From positions 1 to 57,036 of the forward strand of contig JBOHFC010000266.1 of NCBI GenBank assembly GCA_050701375.1: a DNA stretch of 57,036 nt. Reading direction: 5' to 3'. This DNA comes from Pseudonocardiaceae bacterium. GTDB taxonomy: Bacteria > Actinomycetota > Actinomycetes > Mycobacteriales > Pseudonocardiaceae. Below, one piece after another: positions 28,841-50,828 of this stretch (position 1 is its first letter; each line of letters begins with the position of its first letter). The notes below the pieces were generated by a model. The model had not been told where the DNA came from, did no database searches, and was given only the letters and a program-made list of their open reading frames with translations. Made by a program: the position numbers and the translations under genes.

Positions 28841-30424
<1,584 letters not shown>

Positions 30425-30483
30425 GCCGGCGGTGCCGGGCTCGTGCTTGGTCCGGCACCCAGACCACGCAGGGAAGGGGTCGC

Positions 30484-31080: not shown

Positions 31081-31090
31081 GGAGCAGACG

Positions 31091-32931: not shown

Positions 32932-34461
32932 TCATGACGAGGCCGCTCCCTCCTCGTTATGCAACGGCCGTGCCGGGTCGAGGGTATGCGTCACGGCCAG
33001 CGCATTGGCCGCGCCGGCACCGGCCCGCCCATCCGCACTGCCTGCCCAGGCGTCACCGTCCACCTTGGTCCGCGAGGCACCACCGGCGGGCTTGGGCAGC
33101 TCGCCGAACTTGGGCCAGTACTGCCGGTACTTCCGGACCGCCTCCTTCCCTACCCGGTCCGCGAGCAGCTTGGCCACCTCGCTGGCCGAGCACTGTCCGC
33201 TTCGGACCAGACGAATAGCGGCGCGGGCAATTCTGGGTGGTGTGAGTACCCGGTAGGGCGAAAGTCGGTGTGACATCACCCGATCGATCAACAGGATCTT
33301 GGCCTTCGGATCGTCCCCGATTATCCGCAGCATCTCGCGCTCCAGCGGGCCGAGCGCACCGGCCTGGGCAAAGTCGTAGGCCAGCCAGTACATTGGGGTG
33401 GCATCTGCATCTCGCCACTTCCACCACCGCTTCGTCACGCGGTCGACTGCGGCTTGGTCCCGGGCCGGCACCAAAGTGATGTCGGTGGCGAACCGCTTGG
33501 CTTGGCGCAGCGCATCCGAGATGCCCTGCGCGATGGTGGGGTCCTTGAAATGCCCGGCGTCCCCGATCAGCGCCCAGCCTGGGCCGGCCGACTCGCGGAA
33601 ATAGCCAGGTAGATAGGCGGTGCCGACCGGCCTGGTCACCCGCCGCGCCGCGCTCAGCACCGGCTGCAACTGCGGGCACTCCGCGACTAGCGCATCATAG
33701 CTTTCCGGAAGGTTCCGTTTGAACTCGGCGAATTCCTCCATCCCGGGGGCCACCACCACGGTGAAGCGGTCATTGTCCGAACGGAAGGCGATAGTCAGCT
33801 TCGCGCCGTCCCGGTACTGATGGCCGGGCGGCAGCCCGTCGTCCTGCACGTCGACGAAGTCTGCCCAGAACGCGAAACGCTGGTTGGCCGTCGTGTTGTA
33901 GGTACGCGAACCGGCTAGTTCGGCAACCCGCGAGTTGCGGCCGTCCGCCCCAACCACTAACGCCGCGCGCATTTCATACTGCTTTTCCTTGCTGCGTACC
34001 ACCACGCCCTCGACACGGCCACCAGCGTCTCGGATCAGCTCCACCAAGGACGTGTGCTGGCGGACGTCGACCCCTTCCGCGATGGCCCGATCTAGCAGGA
34101 AACCGTCTAGCAGCTTGCGGCTGACACTGATGCCGCCCGGCGGCTGGCCGACATCCGGATACACCGGGGCGTCGAGATTCACATTGTCGTAGTCGACCCG
34201 CACCGCATCGACGAACGGCGCACCGGTGCTCCTGAGCTGGTTGAGCAGACCGAGTTCAGCCAGGACGCTCACCCCAGACACCTGCAACAGATGTGTGGAC
34301 AACGTATCGCTGGGAAAACCGGCGCGATCAACCAGTACTACCCGGCGGCCCGCCCTGGCCAGGTGAATCGCAAGCGACGCTCCGGAGATCCGGGCGCCGA
34401 CCACAACCACATCAGCGCTGTCGGGAAAAGGCTCAGGGTAGGGCTGCTCAGGAAAAGACAT
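32932..34461 (-). CDS. FAD-dependent oxidoreductase (geranylgeranyl-reductase / PHBH-like fold)
   Basis: DVVVVGARISGASLAIHLARAGRRVVLVDR dinucleotide fold and LIGDAGHFKDPTIAQGISDA. No WxWxIP halogenase motif. The start is ATG 34461, overlapping the UbiA stop by 14 nt. Confidence 0.8.
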   Translation of the reverse strand: MSFPEQPYPEPFPDSADVVVVGARISGASLAIHLARAGRRVVLVDRAGFPSDTLSTHLLQVSGVSVLAELGLLNQLRSTGAPFVDAVRVDYDNVNLDAPVYPDVGQPPGGISVSRKLLDGFLLDRAIAEGVDVRQHTSLVELIRDAGGRVEGVVVRSKEKQYEMRAALVVGADGRNSRVAELAGSRTYNTTANQRFAFWADFVDVQDDGLPPGHQYRDGAKLTIAFRSDNDRFTVVVAPGMEEFAEFKRNLPESYDALVAECPQLQPVLSAARRVTRPVGTAYLPGYFRESAGPGWALIGDAGHFKDPTIAQGISDALRQAKRFATDITLVPARDQAAVDRVTKRWWKWRDADATPMYWLAYDFAQAGALGPLEREMLRIIGDDPKAKILLIDRVMSHRLSPYRVLTPPRIARAAIRLVRSGQCSASEVAKLLADRVGKEAVRKYRQYWPKFGELPKPAGGASRTKVDGDAWAGSADGRAGAGAANALAVTHTLDPARPLHNEEGAASS

Positions 34462-35392
34462 TGACGACCACCAACCCGAGGACGGCGACTCGGAGGGCCA
34501 AGAATCCGTAGTTGCGACGATTGCGCCAATAACCATGCAACCCGTTACGCAGCACGTAGAACTGCATCAGCCAGGCCGGCAGCAGGCCCAGCGGCGTCCA
34601 GGGGCTAAGCACAGCGAACGCGGTGCCGGCGATGGCCAGCGCCCATGAGGTAACGAACATGACAACGACGAAGGCCAGATTGGTACGCTGCGAGGTACGG
34701 GCAGCCACGGTGCGCCGGCCCACGCTGTGATCGTCTGCGGCGTCGGCCGTATTGGAACAGATCAGCACTTGCACCAACCACATACCGAAGAGCACACCCT
34801 GGATCAGAGCGGCTGCGCTGACCTCGCCGACCGCGGCGCCGAAAGGCAGCCATATACTGGCCGCCAGGGTGATCCCGGTGAGCGCCTCACCGCCACCGAA
34901 AATGCGATAGCTGAAGTTGATCCCAGCGGAGTACTGCGCGCCGAAGATCGTCACCAACAGCCCGCCGACCAGTGCCCACCAGGGACGGAAACCAGCGACC
35001 GCCCAGAACACCATCACGCAGGCCGAAGCCACAACCACCGAACTGTAGGCGAAAACCCTCGCGGTGGCGACGGTGACCGTGCCCTGCACCAGTGGTTTAA
35101 CCTGGCTGCGTTTGCGTTCCGGCGCGTAATTGCGGATATCACTGCCATCCAGGAAACCGGTGATGTCGTCGAAGGCATGGCTTGCGCACACTGTAAAGCC
35201 GATGGCGATCAGGAAGAGCAGGCACAGCATGGTCGAACGAATATGCGGCACGCCTTGGCCGACCAGCAGCGACCAGGCTACAATCGGCCCTGTCCAGATG
35301 TCGTACAGTTTGAGTTTGCCCAGCTGCGCCAGTGCGGTCACAGTCTCGATCAAACGGCCTGACGGCGCCTGCACTGCATGCGTTTCGGACAT
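34448..35392 (-). CDS. UbiA-family integral membrane aromatic prenyl/alkyl transferase
   Basis: About 8-9 TM segments and an Asp-rich motif SHAFDDITGFLDGSDIRN (NDxxDxxxD-like). The start is set at ATG 35392. The upstream 88 codons of the ORF are non-coding-like. Confidence 0.75.
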   Translation of the reverse strand: MSETHAVQAPSGRLIETVTALAQLGKLKLYDIWTGPIVAWSLLVGQGVPHIRSTMLCLLFLIAIGFTVCASHAFDDITGFLDGSDIRNYAPERKRSQVKPLVQGTVTVATARVFAYSSVVVASACVMVFWAVAGFRPWWALVGGLLVTIFGAQYSAGINFSYRIFGGGEALTGITLAASIWLPFGAAVGEVSAAALIQGVLFGMWLVQVLICSNTADAADDHSVGRRTVAARTSQRTNLAFVVVMFVTSWALAIAGTAFAVLSPWTPLGLLPAWLMQFYVLRNGLHGYWRNRRNYGFLALRVAVLGLVVVNVFS

Positions 35393-35947: not shown

Positions 35948-37429
35948 TCAAACCCCTGCCCTCAGCGTGACCGTGCCGTTCCAGCCGTCCACCACCGCCT
36001 GCTGTCCTATTTGCTCGTCCGGAATGGACAGTCCGGCGACGAACGGGATGCCCAGTTCGCGGCAGACTATCGCGACGTGGGAGAGCACGCTGCCGTACCG
36101 GCTCACTACGCCGTCCGGAAGCACGGCGAGCACGTAGTTGCCGTCCACCCGGTCGCCGACCACAATCCGGCCTTCCTCGCCGTGGCTTGCGCGGACCAGC
36201 ACGCCTTCCGCCCAGCCAGGGGCCAGCGCAGTAGCCACGCCTGTGCTGCCGGCCGGGGTCGGTCGAATGACCCCGGCCAGCCCGCGGCGGCGCTGCTGGA
36301 GATCGACCGGATATTCGGTCACGGCGGCCTGCTCCAGCTCCTCGCTGCGCTGGTCGGTCAGCCTCCGCCGGGCGCTGGCGCTCAGCTCGCGAAGCTCACC
36401 GACGCCGAGCAACGCGGCTTCATCGGCTTTCGCTGAGAATGCGCCTATGTCCAGCAGCACCCGGGTGCAATGCAGGGCACGCAGACCGATCTCCTTGGAC
36501 CTCTCCCGTTCACCGAGTGCCAGACCGAGCATCTTCATCGCCTGCTCGTAGATCGGGCCAAGCGCGGTGCCCAGCGGAACCGACGCCTCATCCGCGACGA
36601 GTTCGGTGCCCACCTTTTCACGGTTGCCCAGGATCGACGCGGCTGCGAACAACCTGGCCTGGGAGAACCGGCCGAACACCTCGCCGGCGTCAGCGACCTC
36701 GTAATTGTTCAACCGGTCCACGTCTATGGTCAGTGCGCCGGCCCGCGAGCTGGCTCCCTGCCCGTCGTCTTTGCGGTGCGCACTGGCCCGCAACAGTTCA
36801 AGCGCGGTCGCATCGTCGTACTGCATCCGCAGCAGCCGCCTCGTCAGCGCGGCCGCCGCATACACGACGGTGGTGGTGCGGATATGCAGCGCCCAGGCGG
36901 CGCGACCGGCCTCGATGGCCGCATCACACGCGGTTCCAGCCTGCCAGCTGCTGCCGGTCTCCACCGCCGCCAGCACGCCGGCCTCGGCGCGTGCCAGCGC
37001 CGCGTGCGCGGTGCCGAAGGCGGCCGCGTTGTCGAACACCAGCCGCAGCGTCCGCGGCAGGCGCAACGCCGCCATGGTCCGGCTCGGTTTCGGCCGCCGG
37101 GCCACCTCTGGGCCCGGCCCCCCGAGTAGCAAGTCCCAGATCCCGGCCGGGTCGATCACCCGCAGCTCGTCGACCAGCCGTTCGGTGGTGGTCATATTGA
37201 AGTACGGCCGGAACCCGAAGTAGCTGACGTACTGCGGGCGAGGACCGCTCGGCTGCTCGCGGGCAAACTTCCGCGCCGCGGCACGGAACCCCTGTTCCAT
37301 GCCGGCACCGATAATCGACCAGCTCAGCGGGGACAGCAGCTCCGGGCAGACCTCGCGGAAGTTGTAACCGCTGTGCACCGCGTCCACGACGGTGCTGGGC
37401 GTGTCGAGGGAAAACATGGGCAGGCTCAT
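35948..37429 (-). CDS. PEP-utilising-enzyme mobile (swivel His) domain protein with a large N-terminal non-ATP-grasp domain
   Basis: C-terminus ...YGSVLSHVAIVCRELGIPFVAG... (PEP-utilizers domain). The N-terminus begins ..NFREVCPELLSPLSWSI.., reminiscent of the substrate domain of rifampin-phosphotransferase-like PpsA homologues. ATG 37429 overlaps the upstream stop (ATGA). Confidence 0.75.
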   Translation of the reverse strand: MSLPMFSLDTPSTVVDAVHSGYNFREVCPELLSPLSWSIIGAGMEQGFRAAARKFAREQPSGPRPQYVSYFGFRPYFNMTTTERLVDELRVIDPAGIWDLLLGGPGPEVARRPKPSRTMAALRLPRTLRLVFDNAAAFGTAHAALARAEAGVLAAVETGSSWQAGTACDAAIEAGRAAWALHIRTTTVVYAAAALTRRLLRMQYDDATALELLRASAHRKDDGQGASSRAGALTIDVDRLNNYEVADAGEVFGRFSQARLFAAASILGNREKVGTELVADEASVPLGTALGPIYEQAMKMLGLALGERERSKEIGLRALHCTRVLLDIGAFSAKADEAALLGVGELRELSASARRRLTDQRSEELEQAAVTEYPVDLQQRRRGLAGVIRPTPAGSTGVATALAPGWAEGVLVRASHGEEGRIVVGDRVDGNYVLAVLPDGVVSRYGSVLSHVAIVCRELGIPFVAGLSIPDEQIGQQAVVDGWNGTVTLRAGV

Positions 37430-38424
37430 GAGGGCAGTTCTCGCAGTCGGGCTATCTCGTGATCGAGGGTGCGGATCAGGTATCCGCGGTCGGCCGGTAC
37501 GGCAACCCGCCCGGCGTCCACAAGTTCGCGCAAGCAGCCGAGCTCGAGATCCCAGTGCGCGGTGCAGTAGTCGAAGACCGCACGCTCCATCGGCAGGTCC
37601 AGCCAGCGCGGCTGGACGACCGCGGCCAGCAACCTCGCCAACCCGTGGTGTCGGATGCGCTTCGCGCGCGCCCCATATTTGACGTTCACCAGGTCGAGGA
37701 CCTCGGCGAGGGTGGGCGACGCAGGATCGACCGCCCATACCGACGATCCGCCGGTACCGTACCTGACCCGGTCCAACACCACCTGTGCGCAGAAATCCGA
37801 CGGCAGGCACCAGTACCGGTTCGAGCCCAGCACCGGCAGCGGCCAGCCGGCGAACAGGAGGCGCAGCAGTTCGAACACCGCCTGCGGTTTGGCCGGGCGC
37901 CCCAGCTCGTCCGAACCGGCGAGCACATGTCCGGCTCGCACGATGTCGATCGGCAGGCCGGAGCCACGGGCCATCCGTTCCCCCTGGATTTTGGCCCACT
38001 CGTAGAAGTTCCGGTGCCTGCCCTGGGGTTGGTAGTCGCTGCGCATCCGCTGCCGCACGTCGCCGGTGGCCAGCAGGCTGGACACCAGCACCACGTTCCG
38101 AAGCCGTTCACAGCTCTTGGCGAACCGCAGCGCACCGCGCAGCGGCACCAGGTGCTCGGACTGCGCCTTGGACAGCGGCACCGACAGATCGAAACTGCCG
38201 ACGCTCACCACCACCGAGGTCACCTCCGCCGCGAGCTGGTCGGCTTTGTCCTCGTCGAGTCCGAGGAAATTCCGCCGGGCGTCGCCGACGTGCACCCTCA
38301 CCTGCGCGCCCAGGTGCGGGGCGGGACGCCGGGTCAGGCCGTGCACTTCGAGGCCGCCTGCCGACGCCGACGCACAGACCGCCGAGCCGACCCAGCCGCC
38401 GGCACCGATCACAAGAACACTCAT
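37426..38424 (-). CDS. NAD(P)-dependent SDR (epimerase/thioester-reductase-like, NAD_binding_4 type)
   Basis: MSVLVIGAGGWVGSAV Rossmann N-terminus. ATG 38424 abuts the upstream stop; an alternative GTG lies at 38433. Confidence 0.7.
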   Translation of the reverse strand: MSVLVIGAGGWVGSAVCASASAGGLEVHGLTRRPAPHLGAQVRVHVGDARRNFLGLDEDKADQLAAEVTSVVVSVGSFDLSVPLSKAQSEHLVPLRGALRFAKSCERLRNVVLVSSLLATGDVRQRMRSDYQPQGRHRNFYEWAKIQGERMARGSGLPIDIVRAGHVLAGSDELGRPAKPQAVFELLRLLFAGWPLPVLGSNRYWCLPSDFCAQVVLDRVRYGTGGSSVWAVDPASPTLAEVLDLVNVKYGARAKRIRHHGLARLLAAVVQPRWLDLPMERAVFDYCTAHWDLELGCLRELVDAGRVAVPADRGYLIRTLDHEIARLRELPS

Positions 38425-39470
38425 GCCGGCCACCCCGCATAGTAAGAGTTGATTACCGGTAGTTGCGGCCGGTGGGGCATGCCGAGCGTGCGCACGAGGC
38501 TGCGGACGGATACGTCACAACCCAGCCCGGAGCTGGCGAACACGGTCTTCGAGGCGAAGTACCGCAGGCCGATTACCGCGGAATTCTTGGGGCTCTCGTT
38601 CAGCCGGTCGGCCTGCTGCGAGACCGCGCGTAGCCACCGGGCCGGCATCCGGACCGGGCGGGGGAACAACCGGGTGTCGCCGTGCGTGGCCGCGGCGGCC
38701 TCCTTCGCAAACGCTTCCACTAGCGGCGCGGCCGCGCCTTGGCTGATATTGCGCACGACGACGTCCCGCGGCACCTCGTCCAGCGCACTGAGCAACTTGG
38801 CTGCCACCAGGTCGCGTGGACAGATGTCCAGCCTGGCGCCGGAGGCAAACGGCAGCACCGGCCACATCCCGGTCTGGATGATCCGAGCGAATGGCACCTT
38901 GGTCGCCCCAGAGCGCACGCCTGGCACCGGCTCGAAGTCGCCGGACAGCGCCGGGATACGGGCGATCACCGCAGGCACCCCGTGTGCCCGGCAGATCCGC
39001 GCCACCGCCCATTCGCCGCGGAGTTTGGTGCGTTCGTATTTGGTGAGCTTCGGCCGCTCTTCCAGCAGGACTTCGTACACTTCCTCGCCGTGGTCGTAAC
39101 CGGCGTACAGCGAGCTGGCGTGCACCAGGGTGGCGCCCAACGTGCTGGCTAGTTCCGCGGAGTTGGTGGCGCCTTCGACATTGATTTCCACCAACCGCGA
39201 CCACGGCGCCGACCAGGACACGTCACCGGCCAGATTGATCACTGCGTTGACTTCGCCCCGCAACTCGGCCACCAGGTCGTCGGGCAGGCCCCAGTTCGGC
39301 CGGCGCACATCGCCGGGCACACCGCGCACCTGAGCACCGGTGCGGCGTTGCACGGTCTTGGCGCGGTTGGGCCAGTCACCGCCGCGCAACAAGGCCACCA
39401 CTGGCTGATCGATCTTGCGAAGGAGTGCGGTGCCGAGGAATCCGGTCGCCCCGGAAACAAGGACGGTCAT
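38421..39470 (-). CDS. thioester-reductase / fatty-acyl-reductase-like SDR (NAD_binding_4)
   Basis: MTVLVSGATGFLGTALL....VVALLRG........V...........V.GDV..PNWGL.......L..EV.AVINLAG.V is typical of terminal reductase domains. ATG 39470 overlaps the malonyltransferase stop (ATGA). Confidence 0.8.
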   Translation of the reverse strand: MTVLVSGATGFLGTALLRKIDQPVVALLRGGDWPNRAKTVQRRTGAQVRGVPGDVRRPNWGLPDDLVAELRGEVNAVINLAGDVSWSAPWSRLVEINVEGATNSAELASTLGATLVHASSLYAGYDHGEEVYEVLLEERPKLTKYERTKLRGEWAVARICRAHGVPAVIARIPALSGDFEPVPGVRSGATKVPFARIIQTGMWPVLPFASGARLDICPRDLVAAKLLSALDEVPRDVVVRNISQGAAAPLVEAFAKEAAAATHGDTRLFPRPVRMPARWLRAVSQQADRLNESPKNSAVIGLRYFASKTVFASSGLGCDVSVRSLVRTLGMPHRPQLPVINSYYAGWPA

Positions 39471-40393
39471 GCGTCTACCTCCAGCCGTGTCCCAGCAAGG
39501 CAGACGAACTTCACGATGTGCTCGCGCCGGCCAAGTTTGTGCAACGTCTCGCCGGGACCGGCGTCCCACACCCGCTCGACGCCGAGGTCACGGACCGCCT
39601 TGGTGGCGTCCAACCAGCGGACCGGCAGCAGCAGAGCCCGGATCAGCAATTCACGGAGTTCGCCCGGAGCGGTGTGCGGGCCGGCGTCGATAGTGGACAC
39701 CACGGTGGTACTGGCCGGTTTGAACGGCACAGCCTCCACGGCTTCGCGCCACAGCACGATGGCGTCAGCCATCAGCGGCGAATGAAAACTGCCGCCGACC
39801 GGCAGCACCTCGGCCAGTACCCCGAGCTCCCCTGCGATGGTCATGGCCTGCTGCGCGGTGTGGGTGTCACCCGAGAGCACGGTCTGCCGCCTGCCGTTGA
39901 GCCCGGCTAGTTCCAGCACGCCGCCGGAGCGGGCGATGGCCTGACGGCGGATCCATTCGATTCCGACCAGATCAGCGCCCATCACCGCGATCATGGAACC
40001 GGACCGCGCCTTCTGCTGTACGTAACAGATCTGGCCCCGGCGCTCGGCCAGTGCCAGCCCGTCCCACGGGTCGAGGACACCGGCCTGTGCCAGTGCGGTC
40101 AGCTCGCCGAGGCTGTGGCCGAGCACCGCAGCCGGGGAGGCGTCCTGGCCGAACATCTCCTCGACCGAGGCCAATCCGCACACGTAGGTCGCGGGTTGCG
40201 CCATCCTGGTGTCGTGAAGGTTCAATTCGGACGGATCGAGTGCGAAGTGGTCCAGGAACGCAGCCGCCAGCGGATGCTCGCGGTAGCGGGTCAGCGCGTC
40301 GATGGTGGCATCCAGCTTATTGCCCTGACCGGGAAACGCGATGGCCAGACCGTCCGCTGCGGACAGTTTCCGGGCGGGTTCGGCAGTGCTCAT
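39467..40393 (-). CDS. ACP S-malonyltransferase (FabD-like)
   Basis: AFPGQGN and LGHSLGELTALAQAG (GHSxG nucleophile elbow). ATGA overlap with the KR stop. Confidence 0.9.
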   Translation of the reverse strand: MSTAEPARKLSAADGLAIAFPGQGNKLDATIDALTRYREHPLAAAFLDHFALDPSELNLHDTRMAQPATYVCGLASVEEMFGQDASPAAVLGHSLGELTALAQAGVLDPWDGLALAERRGQICYVQQKARSGSMIAVMGADLVGIEWIRRQAIARSGGVLELAGLNGRRQTVLSGDTHTAQQAMTIAGELGVLAEVLPVGGSFHSPLMADAIVLWREAVEAVPFKPASTTVVSTIDAGPHTAPGELRELLIRALLLPVRWLDATKAVRDLGVERVWDAGPGETLHKLGRREHIVKFVCLAGTRLEVDA

Positions 40394-41130
40394 GAGATGG
40401 AGATCCCACCGTCGATGGAGAGCACCTGGCCGGTCATGTAGTCCGCGTCCAGCAGCAGCTCGACGCCTTTGGCGATTTCGTCCGGGGTGCCGAGGCGGCG
40501 GAACGCGGTGCGGTCCACAAGGGCCTTCCGCACCTCGTCAGGAACCTCCTCGGTGAGTTCAGTTGCCATCAGCCCCGGTGAAAGCGCGTTTACCGTCACT
40601 TTCCGCTTGCCGCATTCCAAGGCCAGCGAGCGGGTGAGCCCCATTACCCCAGCCTTGGACGCCGAGTAAGCGGTCTGGCCCTTGCTGCCGATCAGCCCGG
40701 CCGGCGAGACCACGTTGATGATCCGGCCCCAGCGCTGACGGAGCATGCTCGGCAGTACGGCCCGGCAAGTGTGAAAGGTGCCGATCAGGTTGACGTTGAT
40801 GGTGCGGGTCCAGTCGTCGACTGACTGGGTTGCCATCAAGCCGTCCATCCGCACTGCGCCGGAGTTGACCAGTACCGAGACCACGTCGAGCTCTTCGTGC
40901 ACCTGCTCGACCATCGCCTTTGCCGATGCCCAGTCCGCAATGTCGGCCTGGACCACCGCGCTCGGCAGGCTTAGCTCGGCGGCGACCTTCTTGGCACGGT
41001 CCAGGCCGCTGGTGTAGTGCAGCGCGAGCCGCAACCCGCGCCGATCCAATACCTTGGCCACCGCGGCACCGAACGCGCCGGACGCGCCGATGACCAGCGC
41101 GATCCTGTTCTCCTTGGGGTCGCCGATCAC
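40390..41130 (-). CDS. 3-oxoacyl-ACP reductase (FabG-like SDR)
   Basis: ALVIGASGAFGAAVA, NSGA, and YSASKAG catalytic Tyr/Lys. GTGA overlap with the upstream stop. Confidence 0.9.
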   Translation of the reverse strand: MIGDPKENRIALVIGASGAFGAAVAKVLDRRGLRLALHYTSGLDRAKKVAAELSLPSAVVQADIADWASAKAMVEQVHEELDVVSVLVNSGAVRMDGLMATQSVDDWTRTINVNLIGTFHTCRAVLPSMLRQRWGRIINVVSPAGLIGSKGQTAYSASKAGVMGLTRSLALECGKRKVTVNALSPGLMATELTEEVPDEVRKALVDRTAFRRLGTPDEIAKGVELLLDADYMTGQVLSIDGGISIS

Positions 41131-41828
41131 TGCGTCCTCGCAGTGGCTCGCGCGGCGGACAGCCAGGACTGCAAGGCGGCGACCGCACCTGCCGGGCGCG
41201 GCACCGCAGCCAGCGCCGCCAGCAGTTCGGACACGCCACCCAGGTCGTCCGGGCTTGCCCCGGCCGGGGCAAGCAGCACCGCGGCCGCGGTGGAGTCCAC
41301 GGTGTCCGGCAGCAAGTGCCGGTGCTCGTCGGCCACGTCGAAGGCGACTAGTAGGGCGCAGTCGGCGTTGCCGTCCACCAGATGACTCGCGGCGACCACG
41401 GTCATCAACGCGAGGCTGTCCACCTCGCCGGTGTAGTGCACATTGGGGCCGCGGAAACCACCCGCGATGGACAGCTGGCAGATCGGGTTGTTCGGCATCC
41501 GCTGGAGATAGTCGCCGACCCCTTTGGGGTGCAGGTAGAAGCTGCTGAGCTCGGCCTCGGACGGCTGGGCCGCGACCGGCTCAGGCTCCGGGGTGTCCGG
41601 GTCCCAACTGCTGACCGTCAGCAACGCTACCCGGTCCAGCTCGCCGATGGGCTGGTGCCGGTACAGGCTCAGCCCGGCCGCGAACGGTGCGAGGGAGACC
41701 CGTTCGAGCAGCCGGTTGACCTTACGATGGGCGTTTTCCCTGGCGTAGCGGCGCAAATCGTCCGGCAGCTCGCCGGCTCCGAGGGCGCCGACCACCCGGA
41801 TTTCATCGTTAGCTGCGGGTTTCGTCAT
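41127..41828 (-). CDS. short ketosynthase-like partner (CLF-like, no catalytic Cys)
   Basis: 233 aa, resembling only the N-terminal half of a thiolase fold. It has NNPICQLSIAGGFRGPNVHYTGE where a KS would carry the active-site Cys. It lies directly downstream of a KS and is a paralogue of 45343-46050. Confidence 0.7.
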   Translation of the reverse strand: MTKPAANDEIRVVGALGAGELPDDLRRYARENAHRKVNRLLERVSLAPFAAGLSLYRHQPIGELDRVALLTVSSWDPDTPEPEPVAAQPSEAELSSFYLHPKGVGDYLQRMPNNPICQLSIAGGFRGPNVHYTGEVDSLALMTVVAASHLVDGNADCALLVAFDVADEHRHLLPDTVDSTAAAVLLAPAGASPDDLGGVSELLAALAAVPRPAGAVAALQSWLSAARATARTQ

Positions 41829-41834
41829 CGCGTG

Positions 41835-42995
41835 TTAGACCTTCCCGAGAATCAGCGAGGCGTTGTGGCCGCCAAAACCGAAACTGTTGGTGATGACGTA
41901 GTTCAGTTCGAGTTCGCGCGCCTTTGGGATGTAGTCGAGGTCGCAAGCCGGGTCCGGCTCCTCGAAATTCGCCGTGGGCGGGACGACCCCGTCACGCAGC
42001 GCCTTCACGCAGATGATCGTTTCGATGGTTCCGGCGGGTGCCATGGTATGGCCGAGTACACCCTTGGAGGAACTGATCGGCACTTCTTCGGCGGCTTGGC
42101 CGAGCGCCTTACGGATGGCCAGCGTCTCGCACCAGTCGTTGTCCCTGGTGCTGGTGCCGTGCGCGTTGATGTAGTCGACGTCGGCTGGGCACAACCTCGC
42201 GTCGGCCAGTGCCCGGCTTATCGCATAGGACGGTCCGAGTGCGTCCGGTGGGGAGGCCACCGAGTGGTAGGCGTTCTGCGCGGAGCCGAAACCCCTGATC
42301 ACGGCCAGCGGATCGACACCCCGGGCGCGGGCGTGCCGTTCGGATTCCAGCACCACGAAACCGGCTCCTTCGGCCATCAAGAAACCGTCGCGGCGGGCGT
42401 CGAATGGGCAGCATGCCTCCGCTGGATCGCAGTCGCGCACGGTCATTGCATATAGCGAGCAGAAGGAGAAGAAGTCGACCTCGCGGAGCATCGAATCGGC
42501 GCCACCGGCCACCACCACGTCGGCTTGGCCGGACTGGATCAGTTTCACGCCGGAGCCGACCACGAGCGCACCGCTCGCGCAGGCTCCGTAGACTGAAGAC
42601 GCGCGCGCCGCACCGGACGCCTCGCGCATAGCGTCAACCACGTCCTGCACGTACGCGAGCAGCGGTCCGCGGCCGGGTCGCGGGAGCTGGCGTTCTCCGT
42701 GCGTGGCGACCAATGCGATGTCGATGGCGTCGGTATGTGGGGTCAGTCCGGCGTCGGCCAGCGCCTCAGCCAGCGCCGATTCGCCGAACTTGATTGCCAG
42801 TGAGGTGTCGGCCGGCGCCTCGTGCTCGTAGCCGGGCACCGGGGCGCCGAACTTGGCGGGGGCTTCGTACAGCGGGAACCGCTCGATCGGTCGACCGCAT
42901 GGGATGCCGTCGACCACGCGCTGCCAGGTGTCTTCGGCGGTCCAGCCGGCGGGGCTCACCACCCCGACGCCGGTGATCCAGACACCGTCAGACAC
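41835..42995 (-). CDS. beta-ketoacyl-ACP synthase (KS, FabF/type II PKS-like)
   Basis: YGACASGA (Cys), INAHGTSTRDND and LGHTMAPAG (His/His). The start is placed at GTG 42995 (VSDGVWITGVG) by analogy with paralogue KS2 (MSDGVWITGLG). An alternative GTG lies at 43013. Confidence 0.9.
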   Translation of the reverse strand: MSDGVWITGVGVVSPAGWTAEDTWQRVVDGIPCGRPIERFPLYEAPAKFGAPVPGYEHEAPADTSLAIKFGESALAEALADAGLTPHTDAIDIALVATHGERQLPRPGRGPLLAYVQDVVDAMREASGAARASSVYGACASGALVVGSGVKLIQSGQADVVVAGGADSMLREVDFFSFCSLYAMTVRDCDPAEACCPFDARRDGFLMAEGAGFVVLESERHARARGVDPLAVIRGFGSAQNAYHSVASPPDALGPSYAISRALADARLCPADVDYINAHGTSTRDNDWCETLAIRKALGQAAEEVPISSSKGVLGHTMAPAGTIETIICVKALRDGVVPPTANFEEPDPACDLDYIPKARELELNYVITNSFGFGGHNASLILGKV

Positions 42996-43138
42996 CGGCA
43001 ACCACCCCGTCACTCACCGAAATACCGACTTCACCCTCCAATGGAAGAATAAGCTTTAGCAAATCCGGTGAATTCACATTCCAGTGATCCCCCAGCAACC
43101 CTCGACCCAACGCCACTACCGCCCCCTTGTTGGTTCAG

Positions 43139-43225
43139 CGCAACCACATTTACGGAGCCGATTTAACCAGCAGCCTCGCCGGGCCCACAACCGAACGCAT
43201 CCACCGGCGACCCACAACCGCACAT
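43139..43225. promoter_or_regulatory. Conserved leader/promoter element A (paralogue of 47578-47665)
   Basis: caaccacatttacgg ... CCACAACCG (43185) ... CCACAACCG (43212) cacatacg. It has the same order and spacing as the element upstream of the ACP gene. An extra GAATTCACATT copy lies at 43070-43080. Confidence 0.5.
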
Positions 43226-43378
43226 ACGAATGTACGCCCAGCATTACGTGACGGCCGAGTCACGAAACGTGAGCCTCGATAACCAGGCACCAACCACACG
43301 ATCAAGAAATTCGCACCGAACCTGACGTAGTATGTCCGCGTAGTGTGTCCGCCCGGTTTGATGGATAAACGGGACCGC

Positions 43379-44080
43379 TCAGGCGGTGAGCACGACCGCC
43401 AAATGCGCACTGGGATGGGGCAGTGAGTGCACCCGCCACAAGCGGCCCGACGCGGTCAGCCGGTCCGGAAGTGGATGCAGGGGGCGGGCGAGGCCTTCTC
43501 CGGTCGCCTTGGTCAGCGCTTCCCAGCGCACCCAGGCAGCCAGAATGTTCGCGTCAGCCCGGTTCGCTCCCGACGGCAGCACCATCGCAGCGAGCTCGTC
43601 GGCATGGTGGATCGCTCGCGGACGCTCGATGTCCACCCCGAGTCGGCGGTTTGCCGCCGCAGCGACGGCGGTGTAGCGCCCGGAATGACTGAGACTGTGA
43701 AACCACTGGTCATTCCCGTCCGCGATCGGACTCGGATAACCCGTACTGTCCGCCGAGAAGGTCAGCTCACGCGGATCCGCGCCGAGACAGGCTGCCAGCA
43801 GCGACCGCCGCAGCGCGTGCGCCAGCACGTAGGACTCTCGTTTGCCGTCGCGATACCGAAGAGCCTTGTCCTTTTCCCTGCCGTCGAGCAACTCCAGCAG
43901 CTCGCCGACCTTTTCCCGGCTGACGCCGACTTCCGCGGTCCAGACCCACACCTGCGACGGCAGCCCCGCACCCTCGAACTCGAGCAACTCCCGGCAGCTC
44001 GCCTCCCACCGCTTTGGCCATTCCCCCACGCCCAAGGCCTCCGCCGGTATTCGTCGGCCTGGTCGGTTACCTGGCTTCAC
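43379..44080 (-). CDS. 4'-phosphopantetheinyl transferase (Sfp-type)
   Basis: LGVDIERP and WVRWEALTKATG motifs. 233 aa. Confidence 0.85.
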   Translation of the reverse strand: MKPGNRPGRRIPAEALGVGEWPKRWEASCRELLEFEGAGLPSQVWVWTAEVGVSREKVGELLELLDGREKDKALRYRDGKRESYVLAHALRRSLLAACLGADPRELTFSADSTGYPSPIADGNDQWFHSLSHSGRYTAVAAAANRRLGVDIERPRAIHHADELAAMVLPSGANRADANILAAWVRWEALTKATGEGLARPLHPLPDRLTASGRLWRVHSLPHPSAHLAVVLTA

Positions 44081-44089
44081 GGCGCGTTA

Positions 44090-44581
44090 CTACCCGTGTT
44101 TGCCGGCTTCCAGGTACTCCTTGGCATTGGCCAGTTCTTCAGGGACAGCCTTGTCGAGCCAACGGGTGAACAGAGGGTCGAACAGCCAGGCGAAAGGCTT
44201 CCTGAAGTCGAAGTTCAGCGCTCGAGTGACCAGGGTACCGTCCTCGGTCTCTTCGCAGGAGAAGAACCCGGTGAACGTCATCAGTGCGTCGGTCCAGGCG
44301 GGCACGCCGGAAATGTCGATGCGGTTACCCTTCCGCACCACGCGCTGGGTAGTACTGGGGCCGGGCAGGCCAAGCACCTTAGGGGAGAAGTGCAGGAGCA
44401 CACCTTCGCCGTCCTCGGCGTCTTTGATCGAGTGAATTTTGCCGAGTTTCTCGTCAACCTTGCGATATTCACGCAGGTCCATGACGAAATCAAGGATTTC
44501 TTTGGACGGTCGATGAACAACTATCTTGGCCTCACCGTAAGCCATTTCCGCTTCACCTTTCTGTGGCTGGATCAGTGCCAT
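44090..44581 (-). CDS. SRPBCC-fold protein (polyketide cyclase/dehydrase or lipid-binding family)
   Basis: 163 aa. Size and pattern (VVHRP..EILDFVMDL..Y...D........) fit Polyketide_cyc2-like proteins. This is family-level only. Confidence 0.6.
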   Translation of the reverse strand: MALIQPQKGEAEMAYGEAKIVVHRPSKEILDFVMDLREYRKVDEKLGKIHSIKDAEDGEGVLLHFSPKVLGLPGPSTTQRVVRKGNRIDISGVPAWTDALMTFTGFFSCEETEDGTLVTRALNFDFRKPFAWLFDPLFTRWLDKAVPEELANAKEYLEAGKHG

Positions 44582-44644
44582 TAAAGTAATTCTGGCCCTG
44601 TCGTCAATAGCGTTGACCGGTCGATTCGGCTACGGACCGGCGGA

Positions 44645-45346
44645 TCAGGCGGACACCACCCGGTAGATATTAACCCGGTCGTCCAATCCCAGTGGCGCTG
44701 GGTTCATACGACCGGTGGCCGCTAGCAGGAAATCCCGCGGATCGCCATCGACCAGGTCACCGCCGCCCCGGATATCGAGTGTCTCGATCCCGTCCAGTGC
44801 CAGTGTCGCCGGCCCCCAGCCCCACAGGCCCAGCGTCTCGGCCACATGCACCACACTCGCTCGCAGCCCGCCGCCCCGGTCTGGTTCGCGACCGATCGCG
44901 CTGAGCACATCGTCGCCGTGTACGTACAGTTCATACCAAAGTACGAGCACGGCCCGGCGGAGCGGGCCGGGGAATCCGCCGGGCGCCCTGCCGAGCCACG
45001 CCTCGTCGGTGAACCCGTCCAGCAATGTCCCGCACAACCGGCCGGCACGCTCAAGTTCCTTCGCCACCTTCCCCGGCGGCCGGCCCCGGCGGTCGGTGGC
45101 CTGCCCGGCGGTGACCTCGGGCAGCCCCTGGCCCTCCATCCGGCCCACCGCGACATCGCTGAACAACCCGGCGACGTGACCGCACACGTCCCTCACCTGC
45201 CAGCCCGTGCACCGGCTCGGTGTGGTCCACTCGGCGTCGCCCAGTGAACGTAGCAGGCGCACGAAATGGCCGCAGGACTCGGCGATCCCGGCAATCACCT
45301 CGGTACGCGGAAGCACTAGCGGCGGCTCGATCTGCCTGGCTCTCAC
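44645..45346 (-). CDS. DinB/mycothiol-dependent maleylpyruvate-isomerase-N-terminal-domain family protein
   Basis: F..LLRSLGDAEWTTPSRCTGWQVRDVCGHV is typical of the TIGR03083 family. The start is placed at GTG 45346 (GTGA overlap with the upstream stop). Confidence 0.65.
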   Translation of the reverse strand: MRARQIEPPLVLPRTEVIAGIAESCGHFVRLLRSLGDAEWTTPSRCTGWQVRDVCGHVAGLFSDVAVGRMEGQGLPEVTAGQATDRRGRPPGKVAKELERAGRLCGTLLDGFTDEAWLGRAPGGFPGPLRRAVLVLWYELYVHGDDVLSAIGREPDRGGGLRASVVHVAETLGLWGWGPATLALDGIETLDIRGGGDLVDGDPRDFLLAATGRMNPAPLGLDDRVNIYRVVSA

Positions 45347-46050
45347 CGGGCACCACCGGCGGCCAGGGTCGGCGGGTCGCCGCCAAATTTGGCCAGACAT
45401 TCCTCCAACGCGGTGAGTGCGGTCTTTCCAGCCTGTCCGGCCACGTCGGCGGTCGCGATTATCGCGGGCAGCACGTCCGGTTCCGCGCCCGTGGTGAGCG
45501 CCAGTGCGGCGGCCCGGCTGCTGGTCCGTCGGGAAGGGTTGCGCTGCTCATCCTCCGGCGGATCGTAGGCGACCACCAGCGCGAGCTTCGCGGCGCCGCT
45601 CGCCAGGTCCGCGCCCGCGGTGACCAGTGCCTGCCACAACGCTTGCGCATCACCGACCAGATGCACGTTCGGACCGCGGAATCCCTCCACAATGGACACC
45701 TGGCAGAGCGCGTTATTGGCCAGCATCCGGAGCCAGCCGGTGGGGTTGGCGTCCTCCAAGATATGCCGGCCAAGCCGGGCGTCGTCCTCGGCAGACCCGT
45801 TCGGGGTGAACGGCGGATCCGGCTGCGCGCCGTCCCAGCCGCTCACCGTGTACAGCGCGACATCCGCCGGATCGCAGCACGGATTCCGGCGGTAGGCGGT
45901 CGCAGCGGCGACGAACGGTGCCAGTGAAGCGCCGTCGAGGAAACGTAGCACCTTGCGGGGAGCGAACTCCTTGGCCAGCGCCCGCAGATCCTGCTCGTCA
46001 TGCTCGATGGTCGAATAGCTGGCGGCGATCATCATATTGTCGATACTCAT
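45343..46050 (-). CDS. short ketosynthase-like partner (CLF-like, no catalytic Cys)
   Basis: 235 aa with NNALCQVSIVEGFRGPNVHLVGD, a paralogue of 41127-41828. ATGA overlap with the KS2 stop. Confidence 0.7.
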   Translation of the reverse strand: MSIDNMMIAASYSTIEHDEQDLRALAKEFAPRKVLRFLDGASLAPFVAAATAYRRNPCCDPADVALYTVSGWDGAQPDPPFTPNGSAEDDARLGRHILEDANPTGWLRMLANNALCQVSIVEGFRGPNVHLVGDAQALWQALVTAGADLASGAAKLALVVAYDPPEDEQRNPSRRTSSRAAALALTTGAEPDVLPAIIATADVAGQAGKTALTALEECLAKFGGDPPTLAAGGAR

Positions 46051-47213
46051 GCCACCCGCCCGAATATTAGAGACGCGCTGTGCCCGCCGAAACCGAAACT
46101 ATTGCTGAGCACGTGGTGCAGCTCTTTTTCGCGGGAGCCCGACGCCACATAGTCCAGGTCGCACAACGGATCGGGGTGCTTCAGATTGGACGTCGGTGGC
46201 ACCACCGAATTCCGTAGCGCCTGCACCGACAAAGCGGCTTCGATGGCACCGCAGGCGCCCATGGTGTGCCCGAGCTGGCTTTTCGTCGAACTCACCGGCA
46301 CGTCGTCGGCCGCCGCACCGAGCACCGTCCGGATCGCCAGCGTCTCCGACGAGTCGTTGTCCTTGGTACTGGTGCCGTGCGCGTTGATCCAGTCGACGTC
46401 GGTCGCGTCCAGGCGGGCGTCGTCCAGCGCGCCGCGCATGGCGTACTCCAGGCCGAGGCCGTCCGGCGGCGGAGCGAACATGTGATAGGCGTTTTGCCGT
46501 AGTCCGAAACCCTCGGCTACCGCCAGCGGATCGGCGCCGCGCGCCTCGGCGTGCCGTCTGGATTCCAGCACCAGGAAGGCCGCACCCTCAGCGAGCACGA
46601 ACCCGTCCCGGTGGGCGTCGAAGGGACAGGATGCCTCCTCCGGTGGGCACTCCCGGGTGCTCATCACGTATAGGCTGGAAAAGGACATGTACTCGAACGG
46701 CACGATCAACGCGTCACAGCCGCCGGCGAGCACCACCTCCACCTGCCCGGTCTGGATCAGCCGCATGCCGACGCCGATCGCCTGTGCGCTCCCGGCGCAG
46801 GCGCCATACGGGGCACTGTATCGGCCGGTGCCGGCCACTTCGGCGACCTGCTCGGCAATATCCCGGATGCCGATCAGCTTGCCGGTGTCACCGCCGCGCG
46901 GCAGCCGGTTCTCACCGTGGTTGGCCACCAGCGAGACATCGACACTACCGGCTTCCCCAGCGGGGAGCTCGGCGTTGTTCAGTGCGGCACGAACCGCGTG
47001 CAGCCCGTATTCGAGCGACAGCGAGTAGTCCGGTAGCGGACCTTCCCGGCCGGGCACCATCCCGGCGACCCGACTGGACGACGAGTAGGTGGGAAACCGT
47101 TCTAGCTTGCGCACGCGAGAACTGCCGTCGGCCACGCATCGCCAAGTATCTTCGACGGTCCAGCCGCCGGGGCTGACCACCCCGAGGCCGGTGATCCAGA
47201 CGCCGTCAGACAT
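46047..47213 (-). CDS. beta-ketoacyl-ACP synthase (KS)
   Basis: YGACAGSA (Cys), INAHGTSTKDND and LGHTMGACG. It overlaps the ACP 3' end by 8 nt. Confidence 0.9.
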   Translation of the reverse strand: MSDGVWITGLGVVSPGGWTVEDTWRCVADGSSRVRKLERFPTYSSSSRVAGMVPGREGPLPDYSLSLEYGLHAVRAALNNAELPAGEAGSVDVSLVANHGENRLPRGGDTGKLIGIRDIAEQVAEVAGTGRYSAPYGACAGSAQAIGVGMRLIQTGQVEVVLAGGCDALIVPFEYMSFSSLYVMSTRECPPEEASCPFDAHRDGFVLAEGAAFLVLESRRHAEARGADPLAVAEGFGLRQNAYHMFAPPPDGLGLEYAMRGALDDARLDATDVDWINAHGTSTKDNDSSETLAIRTVLGAAADDVPVSSTKSQLGHTMGACGAIEAALSVQALRNSVVPPTSNLKHPDPLCDLDYVASGSREKELHHVLSNSFGFGGHSASLIFGRVA

Positions 47214-47550
47214 CGGCCACCGTCCGTTCCGCGATGAAGTCCACCACGTTGCCTACCGAAAGCCGCCGACTCACCTCGGCCAATTGGGAATCCGACAGCA
47301 CACCGTCCGAACTGACCTTCTCCGGCAGGAACCGCGCAAGCTCGGTCAGTAGCTGCTTGACTTCACCGTCATTCACCGAAATTCCGAATTCGCCCTTCAG
47401 TGAAAGGATAAGCTCCAGTAAGTCCAGCGAGTCCGCATCCAAGTCATCCACCAGCAATGAATCCAACTCGATCGTATCGGCGTCGATTTCCAGATGTTTC
47501 GCCATCTGTACTCGCAGCCGCTCGAAAATCTGCCCGCGATCCAGTGTCAT
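47206..47550 (-). CDS. acyl carrier protein with C-terminal extension
   Basis: LDADSLDLLELI phosphopantetheine-attachment DSL motif. 114 aa, against about 80-90 for typical ACPs. A GGGAGCGG RBS is present. Confidence 0.85.
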   Translation of the reverse strand: MTLDRGQIFERLRVQMAKHLEIDADTIELDSLLVDDLDADSLDLLELILSLKGEFGISVNDGEVKQLLTELARFLPEKVSSDGVLSDSQLAEVSRRLSVGNVVDFIAERTVADV

Positions 47551-47577
47551 CGGCCGCCGCTCCCTACCGGTCTTGTA

Positions 47578-47665
47578 GAATTCACATTTACGTCACACCG
47601 AGCCAACCACCACGACCGCCGCAGCCACAACCGCATCCCGCACCGCGCGCCCACAACCGCAGATA
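47578..47665. promoter_or_regulatory. Conserved leader/promoter element B (paralogue of 43139-43225) in the ACP / MaoC divergent region
   Basis: GAATTCACATTTACG (47578-47592) ... CCACAACCG (47625) ... CCACAACCG (47651) cagatacc. Confidence 0.5.
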
Positions 47666-47806
47666 CCCCGGCCATGCCGCGCTGCCGGAGGAGTACCGGG
47701 CCCGGGACCGACTCATTGCACCGGGTGATGGAGGCGATGGTGTTCGTGATCGACACCGACGCGCGGAGCGCCGCAGGAAAAGCGGGTTAAGTGGCCAGAC
47801 CCGCAC

Positions 47807-50244: not shown

Positions 50245-50828
50245 TCACGACCAGGGAAGTGCTGCGCAGTCTCCGGCTAAAGGGGCGGGCCGGCACCGCC
50301 GACATCGCCGCGGCCAGCGGGATAGATGAGTCGGCCACGCAGGAGATCCTGGACCGCGGCACCGAGAACGGCTTGGTGAATCACCGCAGCGGCCGGCGTG
50401 GTGGTTGGATGCTGACCGCGCAGGGGAACGAAGAGGTCATCAGGCTGCTGGCGGAGGAACGTGCCGGGCTCGCCATCACCGACGCTGCCACCGCTTACGA
50501 CGGTCCCTTCCTGAAACTCAACGCTGAGTTCAAGGAACTGTGCACGCGCTGGCAGCTAGCCGGCGGGGACGCCACGGCCGCCGTGGAGGTCACCGGCGAG
50601 TTCGCGAGGATTCACGACCGCAACCGGGAACTGCTGGGCCAGTTCGCCAGCTCTATCCCCCGGTTTGATCGGTATTGTGCCCGGTTCGAGGCGGCTTACC
50701 AGCGGTTCCTAGACGGCGAGACATCCGCCTTGGTCCAGCCGCTTTCCGGCTCCTATCACGACGTGTGGATCGAGCTGCACGAGGATTTGCTGCTGCTGCT
50801 GGACCGCGCGCGCATAGAAGATGACTAA
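50241..50828 (+). CDS. hypothetical protein with N-terminal winged-helix-like segment
   Basis: 195 aa with ATGA overlap to the preceding gene. The N-terminus ..LRLKGRAGTADIAAASGIDESATQEILDRGTENGLV looks MarR/wHTH-like. No family was recognised. Confidence 0.45.
   Translation: MITTREVLRSLRLKGRAGTADIAAASGIDESATQEILDRGTENGLVNHRSGRRGGWMLTAQGNEEVIRLLAEERAGLAITDAATAYDGPFLKLNAEFKELCTRWQLAGGDATAAVEVTGEFARIHDRNRELLGQFASSIPRFDRYCARFEAAYQRFLDGETSALVQPLSGSYHDVWIELHEDLLLLLDRARIEDD

Follow-up and report, generated by a model that had tools for sequence, protein, structure and literature searches.

The window examined here is the whole 57,036-nucleotide stretch of contig JBOHFC010000266.1 from a Pseudonocardiaceae bacterium (assembly GCA_050701375.1; ~66% G+C), and it carries a type II polyketide synthase (PKS) gene cluster in which two genes, here named P1 and P2, encode what may be the separate halves of one phosphotransferase. 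The gene map was guided by the G+C content of third codon positions (GC3), and families were assigned by Pfam and NCBIfam scans. Along the minus strand, from 47550 to 32932, the order is acyl carrier protein (ACP), ketosynthase (KS), CLF-like, DinB, SRPBCC, PPTase-like, ACP, KS, CLF-like, ketoreductase (KR), AT, two tandem reductases (TR1 and TR2) and P1; beyond P1 lie a small antisense open reading frame (ORF) and then a UbiA-type prenyltransferase and a FAD mono-oxygenase. A plus-strand operon diverging from 47551-47884 holds a MaoC dehydratase, P2 and a 195-aa protein. The features central to the analysis, with related loci cited by our own numbers (L001 onwards), are:

39467..47550, minus strand: genes of a fatty acid synthase (FAS)-like, highly reducing type II PKS (Pfam; synteny with L001-L016).
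38421..39470, minus strand: TR1, NAD_binding_4 thioester reductase, 349 aa (Pfam E 1.5e-26, TIGR01746; motifs GATGFLG and YxxxK).
37426..38433, minus strand: TR2, NAD_binding_4 thioester-reductase-like short-chain dehydrogenase/reductase, 335 aa (Pfam and NCBIfam; Rossmann motif, YxxxK).
35948..37429, minus strand: P1, predicted acceptor component resembling rifampin phosphotransferase (RPH), 493 aa.
P1 residues 1 to ~395: helical substrate-binding domain; residues ~396-493: swivel phospho-histidine domain.
36494-36514, in P1: motif G-E-R308-E309-R-S-K312; 36077-36079, in P1: His451.
47551..47884: divergent intergenic region between the ACP...P1 operon and the operon of MaoC, P2 and the winged-helix protein (gene map; same layout in L001-L003).
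47885..48751, plus strand: MaoC-type dehydratase, first gene of the P2 operon (Pfam E 8e-22).
48712..50244, plus strand: P2, short pyruvate, phosphate dikinase (PPDK) assigned to the VadK family, 510 aa.
P2 ATP-grasp residues: Lys38 in GGKG, Arg107, Glu301, Gln313 and Arg315; swivel His431 at 50002-50004.
50241..50828, plus strand: 195-aa winged-helix protein (ATGA overlap with P2; AlphaFold2 and Foldseek).

Pfam analysis of P1 returned a single match, to PEP-utilizers (residues 419-485, E 1e-9), which was unchanged when the E-value limit was raised to 10, and no match to PPDK_N. The swivel motif GSVLSHVAIVCRELGIPFVAG, containing His451, is present, and an N-terminal motif, NFREVCPELLSPLSWSI, begins at residue 23. 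An AlphaFold2 model built on 32 homologues (pLDDT 86, pTM 0.89) predicted an N-terminal domain made mostly of long helices with two small sheets. When this model was compared with the PDB using Foldseek, RPH-Lm, the Listeria enzyme (5FBU, 5FBT, 5FBS, 5HV1), was the only match over the full length of P1 (E 7e-12 to 1e-9; TM-score on query 0.53-0.59; sequence identity ~14-16%), and the matches to PPDK, enzyme I and pyruvate kinase were confined to the swivel domain. A preliminary description of this DNA, made from its letters alone, had proposed that P1 ends in a swivel histidine domain, that the ~400 residues before it are not an ATP-grasp and that its N-terminus recalls the substrate-binding domain of RPH-like proteins; the Pfam result, the helical model, the full-length match to RPH-Lm and a profile search that found regions lying after the ATP-grasp of longer proteins bear this out. 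A degenerate ATP-grasp in the N-terminal domain, which that description had named among the findings that would speak against it, is ruled out by the same structural comparison, since the model is mostly helical and Foldseek retrieves the RPH substrate domain. P1 is likewise not RPH itself, as there is no ATP-grasp in its chain, nor is it PigC or RedH, whose NCBIfam models it matches in the swivel region only, with 30.4 bits against 1300 for PigC and 20.3 against 1350 for RedH.

A family profile alignment placed P1 269-489 on RPH 627-864 and paired RPH Arg666, Glu667, Lys670 and His825 with P1 Arg308, Glu309, Lys312 and His451, all four of which are invariant in 32 family members. In RPH the second phosphotransfer depends on Arg666 and Glu667, with Lys670 forming part of their hydrogen-bond network, and His825 too is required for this step or implicated in it (PMC4844700). 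P1 also carries the T/SxxGGxxxH motif of two-component dikinases, in the form S-R-Y-G-S-V-L-S-H. Together, alignment and model indicate that P1 is an RPH-type acceptor module, consisting of a substrate-binding domain and a phosphocarrier with an apparently intact catalytic apparatus and no ATP-binding domain. P1 thus appears fully equipped for the second half-reaction of an RPH-type dikinase and to lack the first half.

The family to which P1 belongs is small. Of its 54 homologues nearly all are 480-522 aa long with the same architecture, the few shorter ones looking like fragments, and precomputed annotations give none of the 54 a Pfam domain other than PF00391; the best homologue, from Amycolatopsis nigrescens, is 89% identical. 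The features described for P1 and P2 are not due to chance. An exhaustive HMMER profile search of 1.84 billion representatives, with clusters at 50% identity, gave 41 clusters at E up to 1e-30, comprising ~14 close clusters and ~25 of a second tier of the same length. Farther matches were RPH/PEP-synthase-like proteins of 800-900 aa, matched in the parts that follow their ATP-grasp, with P1 8-208 corresponding to residues ~330-540 and P1 260-490 to residues ~640-890.

P2 has the complementary architecture. Pfam found PPDK_N (E 5e-35) and PEP-utilizers (E 1e-23) in P2, and a search of both P1 and P2 for the PEP/pyruvate TIM barrel (PEP-utilizers_C) gave no match. P2 aligns with Clostridium symbiosum PPDK (1kbl) over residues ~14-515 (E 1e-89), the alignment ending there, and keeps the PPDK motifs GGKG, VRSGA, ExEFT (here EIEFT), LLQSR and T-S-H (GGSTSH431), with the catalytic histidine, residue 431, lying in GGSTSHAAVVARQIG. 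The earlier reading of P2 as a PPDK ATP-grasp with its own swivel histidine that stops before the TIM barrel was therefore correct, and so, judging by the lack of that barrel in either chain, was its statement that neither P1 nor P2 can be a PEP synthase or a PPDK. Against NF004531 (PRK05878, 'pyruvate, phosphate dikinase') P2 scores 521.7 bits (cut-off 456) over profile positions 6-483 of 534; it falls below the full PPDK model TIGR01828 (411 against a cut-off of 843), and only its swivel region scores against the RPH model NF041857 (68 bits against a cut-off of 999), P2 having no substrate-binding domain. We take NF004531/PRK05878 to be the model for truncated actinobacterial PPDKs typified by M. 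tuberculosis Rv1127c (VadK). The nearest relatives of P2 (49-76% identity) are proteins of sister clusters, several on contigs shared with P1 homologues, and the next are thousands of PPDK_N plus PEP-utilizers proteins of 500-600 aa or ~780 aa at ~47% identity. By these comparisons P2 is a member of the short PPDK family and, we infer, of the VadK (Rv1127c) family, and it appears to keep every feature for the first half-reaction of a dikinase without an acceptor domain. VadK, as Rv1127c was renamed in 2026, consists of ATP-binding and histidine domains only, autophosphorylates with ATP and Mg on His422, the counterpart of the swivel histidine of P2, and co-purifies with its operonic partner Rv1126c; no phospho-acceptor was identified, and RPH-like proteins are not mentioned in the report (PMC13400623).

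We next consider how P1 and P2 are arranged in other genomes, as read from tblastn tables and from look-ups of gene context; pattern scans of genomes and of metagenomes gave 9 and 6 loci, respectively, so that the co-occurrence statistics are small. The order reductase-P1 was found in 8/8 gene tables and the stop and start codons overlapped in 7/8, as they do in the window, where the TR2 stop overlaps the P1 start (ATGA). In what we call type A loci, P1 is at least 57% identical to that of the window; these loci come from Amycolatopsis, Saccharothrix, Lentzea, Streptomyces, Nocardiopsis and metagenome-assembled Pseudonocardiaceae genomes and share the divergent operons MaoC-P2-~195 aa and ACP-KS-CLF-KR-AT-TR1-TR2-P1, with the small ORF, UbiA, the FAD mono-oxygenase and a varying set of tailoring genes beyond P1. 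P1 and P2 are co-clustered in all loci of this identity class that have sufficient flank, spanning at least six genera. Type B loci (L004, L005, L006 and L020) have a P1 that is 36-46% identical, the ACP-KS-CLF-KR-AT-TR1-TR2-P1 cassette and MaoC just downstream; a MaoC dehydratase adjoins P2 or P1 in all loci. In addition, a second-tier relative of P1 in L025 overlaps the stop of a NAD_binding_4 reductase within a different kind of cluster (ACP, GFO/IDH/MocA and two DegT aminotransferases). The reductase directly upstream is thus the partner that P1 keeps most constantly, and P2 is constant only in the closer clade. The partnership of P1 and P2 put forward in the preliminary description accordingly holds as co-clustering in that clade, and gives way to the reductase where constancy is concerned.

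Two uncommon architectures also stand side by side outside this cluster. Four short PPDK loci unrelated to it were inspected; the Rph_4th domain (PF27448) of neighbouring proteins is given as listed in precomputed annotations. In a Nocardia locus (L018; 5780-9524) a 536-aa 'Rph_4th + PEP-utilizers' protein is followed by a 204-aa protein and then a short PPDK, and 6 kb away (15743-17524) lies a second pair, a 541-aa Rph_4th plus PEP-utilizers protein with a PPDK_N plus PEP-utilizers protein. On a metagenome contig (L027; 7001-10185) the short PPDK overlaps a 545-aa Rph_4th plus PEP-utilizers gene by 4 nt, with another such gene nearby. In Actinomadura (L017) the PPDK is accompanied only by a ~205-aa gene, and near the short PPDK of L026 are a swivel protein of 235 aa and a 520-aa protein that carries no annotation. 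A profile made from 20 'Rph_4th + PEP-utilizers' proteins of ~545-580 aa aligned with the P1 family over its full length in a profile-profile hhalign comparison (probability 100%, E 6e-41, 490 columns), in a region that includes the N-terminal N-x-x-E-V-x-P...PL-x-W-S and RER(S/T)K motifs; when the P1 family was compared with the single L018 acceptor sequence, only the C-terminal third aligned. Chance adjacency of the two architectures in three separate places is unlikely. From the four loci inspected, an RPH-like acceptor devoid of ATP-grasp together with a short PPDK, with or without a ~200-aa winged helix-turn-helix (wHTH) protein, appears to be a recurrent module of which the window holds a specialised instance, and the pattern suggests a general three-gene dikinase module. 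We found no paper describing an association of a short PPDK with an RPH-like acceptor. The presence of two swivel domains in one system had been called odd, which is right in comparison with characterised systems, but the arrangement recurs in unrelated actinobacterial loci.

The third gene of this putative module overlaps P2 by ATGA at 50241-50244, as had been noted, and the winged-helix character earlier suggested for its product was confirmed by AlphaFold2 and Foldseek. The model of the 195-aa protein (pLDDT 94.8) shows a wHTH domain (residues 1 to ~75) and a four-helix C-terminal bundle, and Foldseek matched the wHTH only (N-terminal ~75-110 residues), to MarR-type regulators at E ~1e-3. 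Its homologues include the 204-aa protein of L018 (35% identity, E 1e-31) and the 205-aa protein of L017 (32%, E 7e-24). The family has 78 matches, often named MarR-family or hypothetical, with an invariant SYHDVWxELHEDL motif that contains two histidines. The 195-aa protein is thus a conserved companion of short PPDKs, possibly an adaptor, a regulator or a phosphocarrier.

Given these data, we propose with moderate confidence that P1 and P2 may be the two parts of a split histidine-relay dikinase of RPH type, specific to the polyketide pathway. P2 would bind ATP in its ATP-grasp and form a phospho-histidine, as has been shown for VadK. The phosphoryl group would then pass to His451 of P1, either because the P2 ATP-grasp charges it in trans or by way of His431 of P2; it is the co-occurrence of the two genes that suggests that P2 loads P1. 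Since P1 has no ATP-binding domain it needs a phosphate donor, and P2 is the only candidate in the window: a search of the window and the type B loci for a second ATP-grasp or PPDK_N found none, only swivel-to-swivel cross-matches, and P1 and P2 are the only swivel-domain proteins found in the window. The charged swivel of P1 would dock on its own helical domain, where Arg308-Glu309...Lys312 would catalyse transfer to the hydroxyl of a small molecule. The most likely substrate would be a primary alcohol freed from the ACP-bound chain of the FAS-like type II PKS by TR1 and TR2; the chain would leave as an aldehyde, then be reduced to the primary alcohol and be phosphorylated by P1. That the product of the reductases is the substrate of P1 is suggested by the translational coupling of TR2 and P1 and by their universal synteny. 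The cluster encodes KS/CLF, KR and a MaoC dehydratase and lacks an enoyl reductase, so that an unsaturated chain is probable and the alcohol possibly allylic. The phosphate ester would probably serve as an activated leaving group. In the weakest and most conjectural step, its user might be the UbiA transferase, joining the chain to a tryptophan-derived aromatic; elimination or substitution would be an alternative, also speculative, use of the ester. The 195-aa wHTH protein would act as the companion of P2, as adaptor, regulator or carrier.

Several observations weigh against this proposal. In the window 11 kb separate P1 from P2, and the two are encoded on opposite strands. In type B loci no P2 or ~195-aa gene was found within the available flanks, and no P2 within 10 kb of P1; as these cassettes show no nearby P2, P2 is not an obligatory neighbour of P1. 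P2 has a swivel histidine of its own, whereas characterised split dikinases do not have one on this component, and we know of no case of swivel-to-swivel phosphotransfer. UbiA enzymes normally need diphosphate donors, whereas RPH-type chemistry yields a monophosphate. VadK itself has been read as a regulatory kinase that binds and acts on methylcitrate-cycle enzymes, not as a small-molecule kinase (PMC13400623). Finally, in most type A loci a tryptophan 2,3-dioxygenase (TDO) is fused to the N-terminus of P2, which ties P2 to another enzyme; examples are:

L001:957-3116, minus strand: TDO-P2 fusion.
L002:623-2875, minus strand: TDO-P2 fusion.
L003:851-2929, minus strand: TDO-P2 fusion.

Such TDO-short PPDK fusions, of ~700-750 aa, occur in Saccharothrix, Lentzea, Streptomyces, Nocardiopsis and A. 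xylanica. The fused TDO domain is bona fide (E 5e-35 to Cupriavidus/Xanthomonas TDOs), and its aligned motifs presumably carry the distal and proximal histidines. In A. nigrescens TDO is a separate gene, and a tblastn search of the window with the L001 TDO domain found no TDO gene or remnant. No description of this domain fusion was found in the literature.

Some of these points would also fit with P2 and the wHTH protein being a VadK-like regulatory module apart from P1, which would control enzymes such as TDO or transcription of the cluster while the donor of P1 is encoded elsewhere. The published account of VadK presents it as a regulatory histidine kinase whose operon also encodes its partner, Rv1126c (PMC13400623), and the translational coupling of P2 to the wHTH protein, the fusion of TDO to P2 in many sister clusters and the type B clusters without P2 in their available flanks all agree with such a role. 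It would, however, leave P1 without the donor that it needs although the window offers P2 as sole candidate, and short PPDKs that elsewhere overlap or adjoin full-length P1 homologues are hard to explain by regulation alone. Moreover, a vadK mutant showed no transcriptional change in the gene groups examined, the methylcitrate-cycle and central-carbon genes, under the conditions tested (PMC13400623). We consider a purely regulatory P2 unlikely. A role of P1 like that of PigC, HapC or RedH, in which it would phosphorylate the carbonyl oxygen of the aldehyde made by TR1 for carbon-carbon condensation with a tryptophan-derived pyrrole or indole, seems to us rather improbable. PigC-type RPH homologues do use a phosphorylated aldehyde intermediate and an Arg equivalent to RPH Arg666 (PMC13534948), the C-terminal part of P1 weakly matches the NCBIfam models for PigC and RedH, and the cluster both makes aldehydes through its reductases and handles tryptophan or indole (a halogenase and other enzymes in the window, TDO in sister clusters). 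But the match to PigC is ~30 bits against a cut-off of 1300 and covers the swivel region only, the two active-looking tandem reductases suggest that reduction continues to the alcohol, and P1-reductase pairs also exist in clusters that have no tryptophan-related gene.

The tight coupling of reductase and P1, translational overlap included, could also be read in the reverse order, with the kinase preceding the reductase: P1 would make an acyl phosphate from a carboxylate and TR2 would reduce it, in the manner of ArgB/ArgC or of succinyl-CoA synthetase. Transfer from phospho-histidine to a carboxylate has a precedent in succinyl-CoA synthetase. Nevertheless, NAD_binding_4 reductases are thioester and aldehyde reductases, such activation is unnecessary since an ACP and a first thioester reductase are present, and the characterised RPH-type acceptors that we found act on hydroxyl-type oxygens (phenols, the C21-OH of rifampin, the MBC carbonyl), which makes an acyl phosphate very unlikely. 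Least probable of all, and hardly to be expected, is that the pair phosphorylates the finished metabolite to inactivate it in the producer, as RPH does with rifampin. RPH is indeed a resistance enzyme and sister clusters carry an MMPL exporter; yet P1 forms part of the early PKS-reductase cassette, to which translational coupling also binds it, and this cassette is conserved across clusters that differ in their tailoring genes and hence in their end products. The self-protection or pro-drug role suggested in the preliminary description is for this reason not favoured.

The split histidine-relay dikinase remains our preferred reading, and a bolder form of it, which we rate as a distinctly doubtful speculation, would account for the two swivel domains. 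VadK-type short PPDKs might be general ATP-driven phospho-histidine loaders for separate RPH-like acceptors. PEP synthase and RPH normally lose the gamma-phosphate to water; here the histidine of P1 would take it, one ATP would load two phospho-histidines, and the polyketide alcohol would be converted to an alkyl or polyenyl diphosphate for UbiA. If so, the adjacent UbiA-type transferase would use this diphosphate as a non-isoprenoid 'prenyl-like' donor, and the two-swivel loader would hint at the missing class of targets for VadK of M. tuberculosis.

Further genes of the cluster lie beyond P1:

35466..35930, plus strand: small conserved ORF of ~154 aa, antisense between P1 and UbiA (tblastn).
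34448..35380, minus strand: UbiA-family aromatic prenyltransferase-like membrane enzyme (Pfam E 8e-16; weak matches to 4HB/DHNA prenyltransferases).
32932..34410, minus strand: FAD-dependent mono-oxygenase beyond UbiA (Pfam; adjoins UbiA in type A loci).

The UbiA gene is present in the window and, by tblastn, in L001-3 and L007-16, while L004 and L006 each have an annotated UbiA-family gene. The ~154-aa ORF has orthologues in L001, L002, L003 and L007 at 40-60% identity and no Pfam match; the four orthologue sequences share an HWGYG motif, and there is a hydrophobic N-terminal stretch. The nearest PDB sequence to TR1 is a type I PKS chain, 8v1x. At 43150-47550 on the minus strand lies a second KS/CLF-like/ACP set with SRPBCC (Polyketide_cyc2), DinB/MDMPI and a weak PPTase-like ORF, shared with A. 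nigrescens-type loci (L007, L008) only; the compact clusters of other genera lack it. A plus-strand ORF of 385 aa with high GC3 in this region (43427-44584) was rejected as spurious antisense, its translation being Arg-rich with no family matches; the real genes beneath it are the minus-strand SRPBCC, PPTase-like and second ACP genes.

At 24226-32275 a plus-strand operon encodes a P450, an 843-aa fusion, an HpcH/HpaI aldolase, a tryptophan halogenase (462 bits), a flavin reductase and a second P450; in the fusion, which is unusual, a VioC-like FAD mono-oxygenase is joined to a Glu/Leu/Phe/Val-type amino-acid dehydrogenase. This operon occupies the place of the sister-cluster TDO, a position suggesting that the tryptophan-derived partner differs in this strain. 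The cluster is rich in heme enzymes and is adjoined at 6857-13491 (minus strand) by a tetrapyrrole/heme gene set that is nearly complete and comprises a hemL-like class-III aminotransferase, coproporphyrinogen oxidase, uroporphyrinogen decarboxylase, ALA dehydratase, porphobilinogen deaminase and glutamyl-tRNA reductase. An MFS transporter (15312-16436, plus strand) and a PMT_2/YkcB-type (GT-C) glycosyltransferase (18037-19797, plus strand) lie in the interval from these heme genes to the tryptophan-modifying operon. DDE_5 transposase genes lie near the heme genes, ~40 kb upstream (4780-6090, minus strand), and directly after the operon of P2 and the wHTH gene (50876-51907, minus strand); a composite transposon was rejected, as the two transposases share only 31% protein identity and their DNA does not match. 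A DDE_5 gene also stands at the cluster edge in L001.

Taken together, the observation made in the preliminary description was correct and its interpretation largely sound, if only partly supported; to it the present analysis adds the family identity of P2, the tight reductase-P1 link, the recurrence of the two-swivel module and the limits of the pairing. The P1 family is a rare, uncharacterised enzyme family tied to reductive release of FAS-like type II PKSs, and phosphorylated polyketide alcohols are predicted as pathway intermediates; no report of alcohol-phosphate activation for this PKS class was found in the open-access literature searched. The gene neighbourhood links the VadK family to RPH-like acceptors and so provides a testable hypothesis for what these kinases load, while the presence of two swivel histidines, unlike in characterised dikinases, could reveal a new relay step. 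The UbiA transferase and the tryptophan-modifying enzymes suggest undescribed hybrid metabolites in Pseudonocardiaceae, Streptomyces and Nocardiopsis.

Finally, we compared P1 and P2 with known systems; the literature yielded nothing relevant on a described cluster or enzyme pair like P1/P2 beyond RPH, HpeHI, HapC and VadK. TamQ and TalE are reportedly dikinase-type enzymes of biosynthetic clusters that activate an oxygen or nitrogen of an intermediate. PigC, HapC and RedH likewise are RPH/PEP-synthase-like histidine-relay phosphotransferases recruited to natural-product biosynthesis (PMC13534948). All five are single-chain enzymes with their own ATP-grasp, unlike P1. VadK resembles P2 in having an ATP-grasp and a swivel histidine, no PEP/pyruvate domain and a small operonic partner (Rv1126c and the 195-aa protein being compared by position only), but VadK is linked to regulation of the methylcitrate cycle, whereas P2 belongs to a PKS cluster that also encodes an RPH-like acceptor. 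RPH-Lm, the only solved structure that matches P1 in full length, shares with it the Arg-Glu...Lys motif and the C-terminal catalytic histidine; it is, however, a single 867-aa chain with an N-terminal ATP-grasp and a resistance enzyme that acts on an ansamycin, while P1 has no ATP-grasp.

The functionally closest known systems are PpsAB, CreHI and HpeHI, with which P1 and P2, seen here through their sequences and models, share an RPH architecture spread over two polypeptides, one with the substrate domain and swivel histidine (P1-like) and one with the ATP-grasp. Their component genes are presumably adjacent. Their ATP-grasp subunits are of RPH type, ~40 kDa (~350 aa) and without a swivel, whereas P2 is of PPDK type with its own swivel histidine, and P1 has 493 aa against ~640 aa for HpeH. 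The likeness to split phosphotransferases such as these, first raised in the preliminary description, thus stands insofar as complementary halves occur in one cluster across at least six genera, and falls short in that the ATP-grasp half is a short PPDK and not of the RPH/PpsB type. The two components of HpeHI act in trans and yield mainly AMP as the nucleotide product, and HpeH by itself can move phosphate from one substrate to another (PMC12167813). The three systems are catabolic and act on phenols, whereas P1 and P2 belong to divergent operons of a biosynthetic cluster and are accompanied by a conserved third, wHTH protein. The P1/P2 pair is therefore not categorically new beside PpsAB, CreHI and HpeHI, and it predicts an undescribed activation step in type II PKS pathways.

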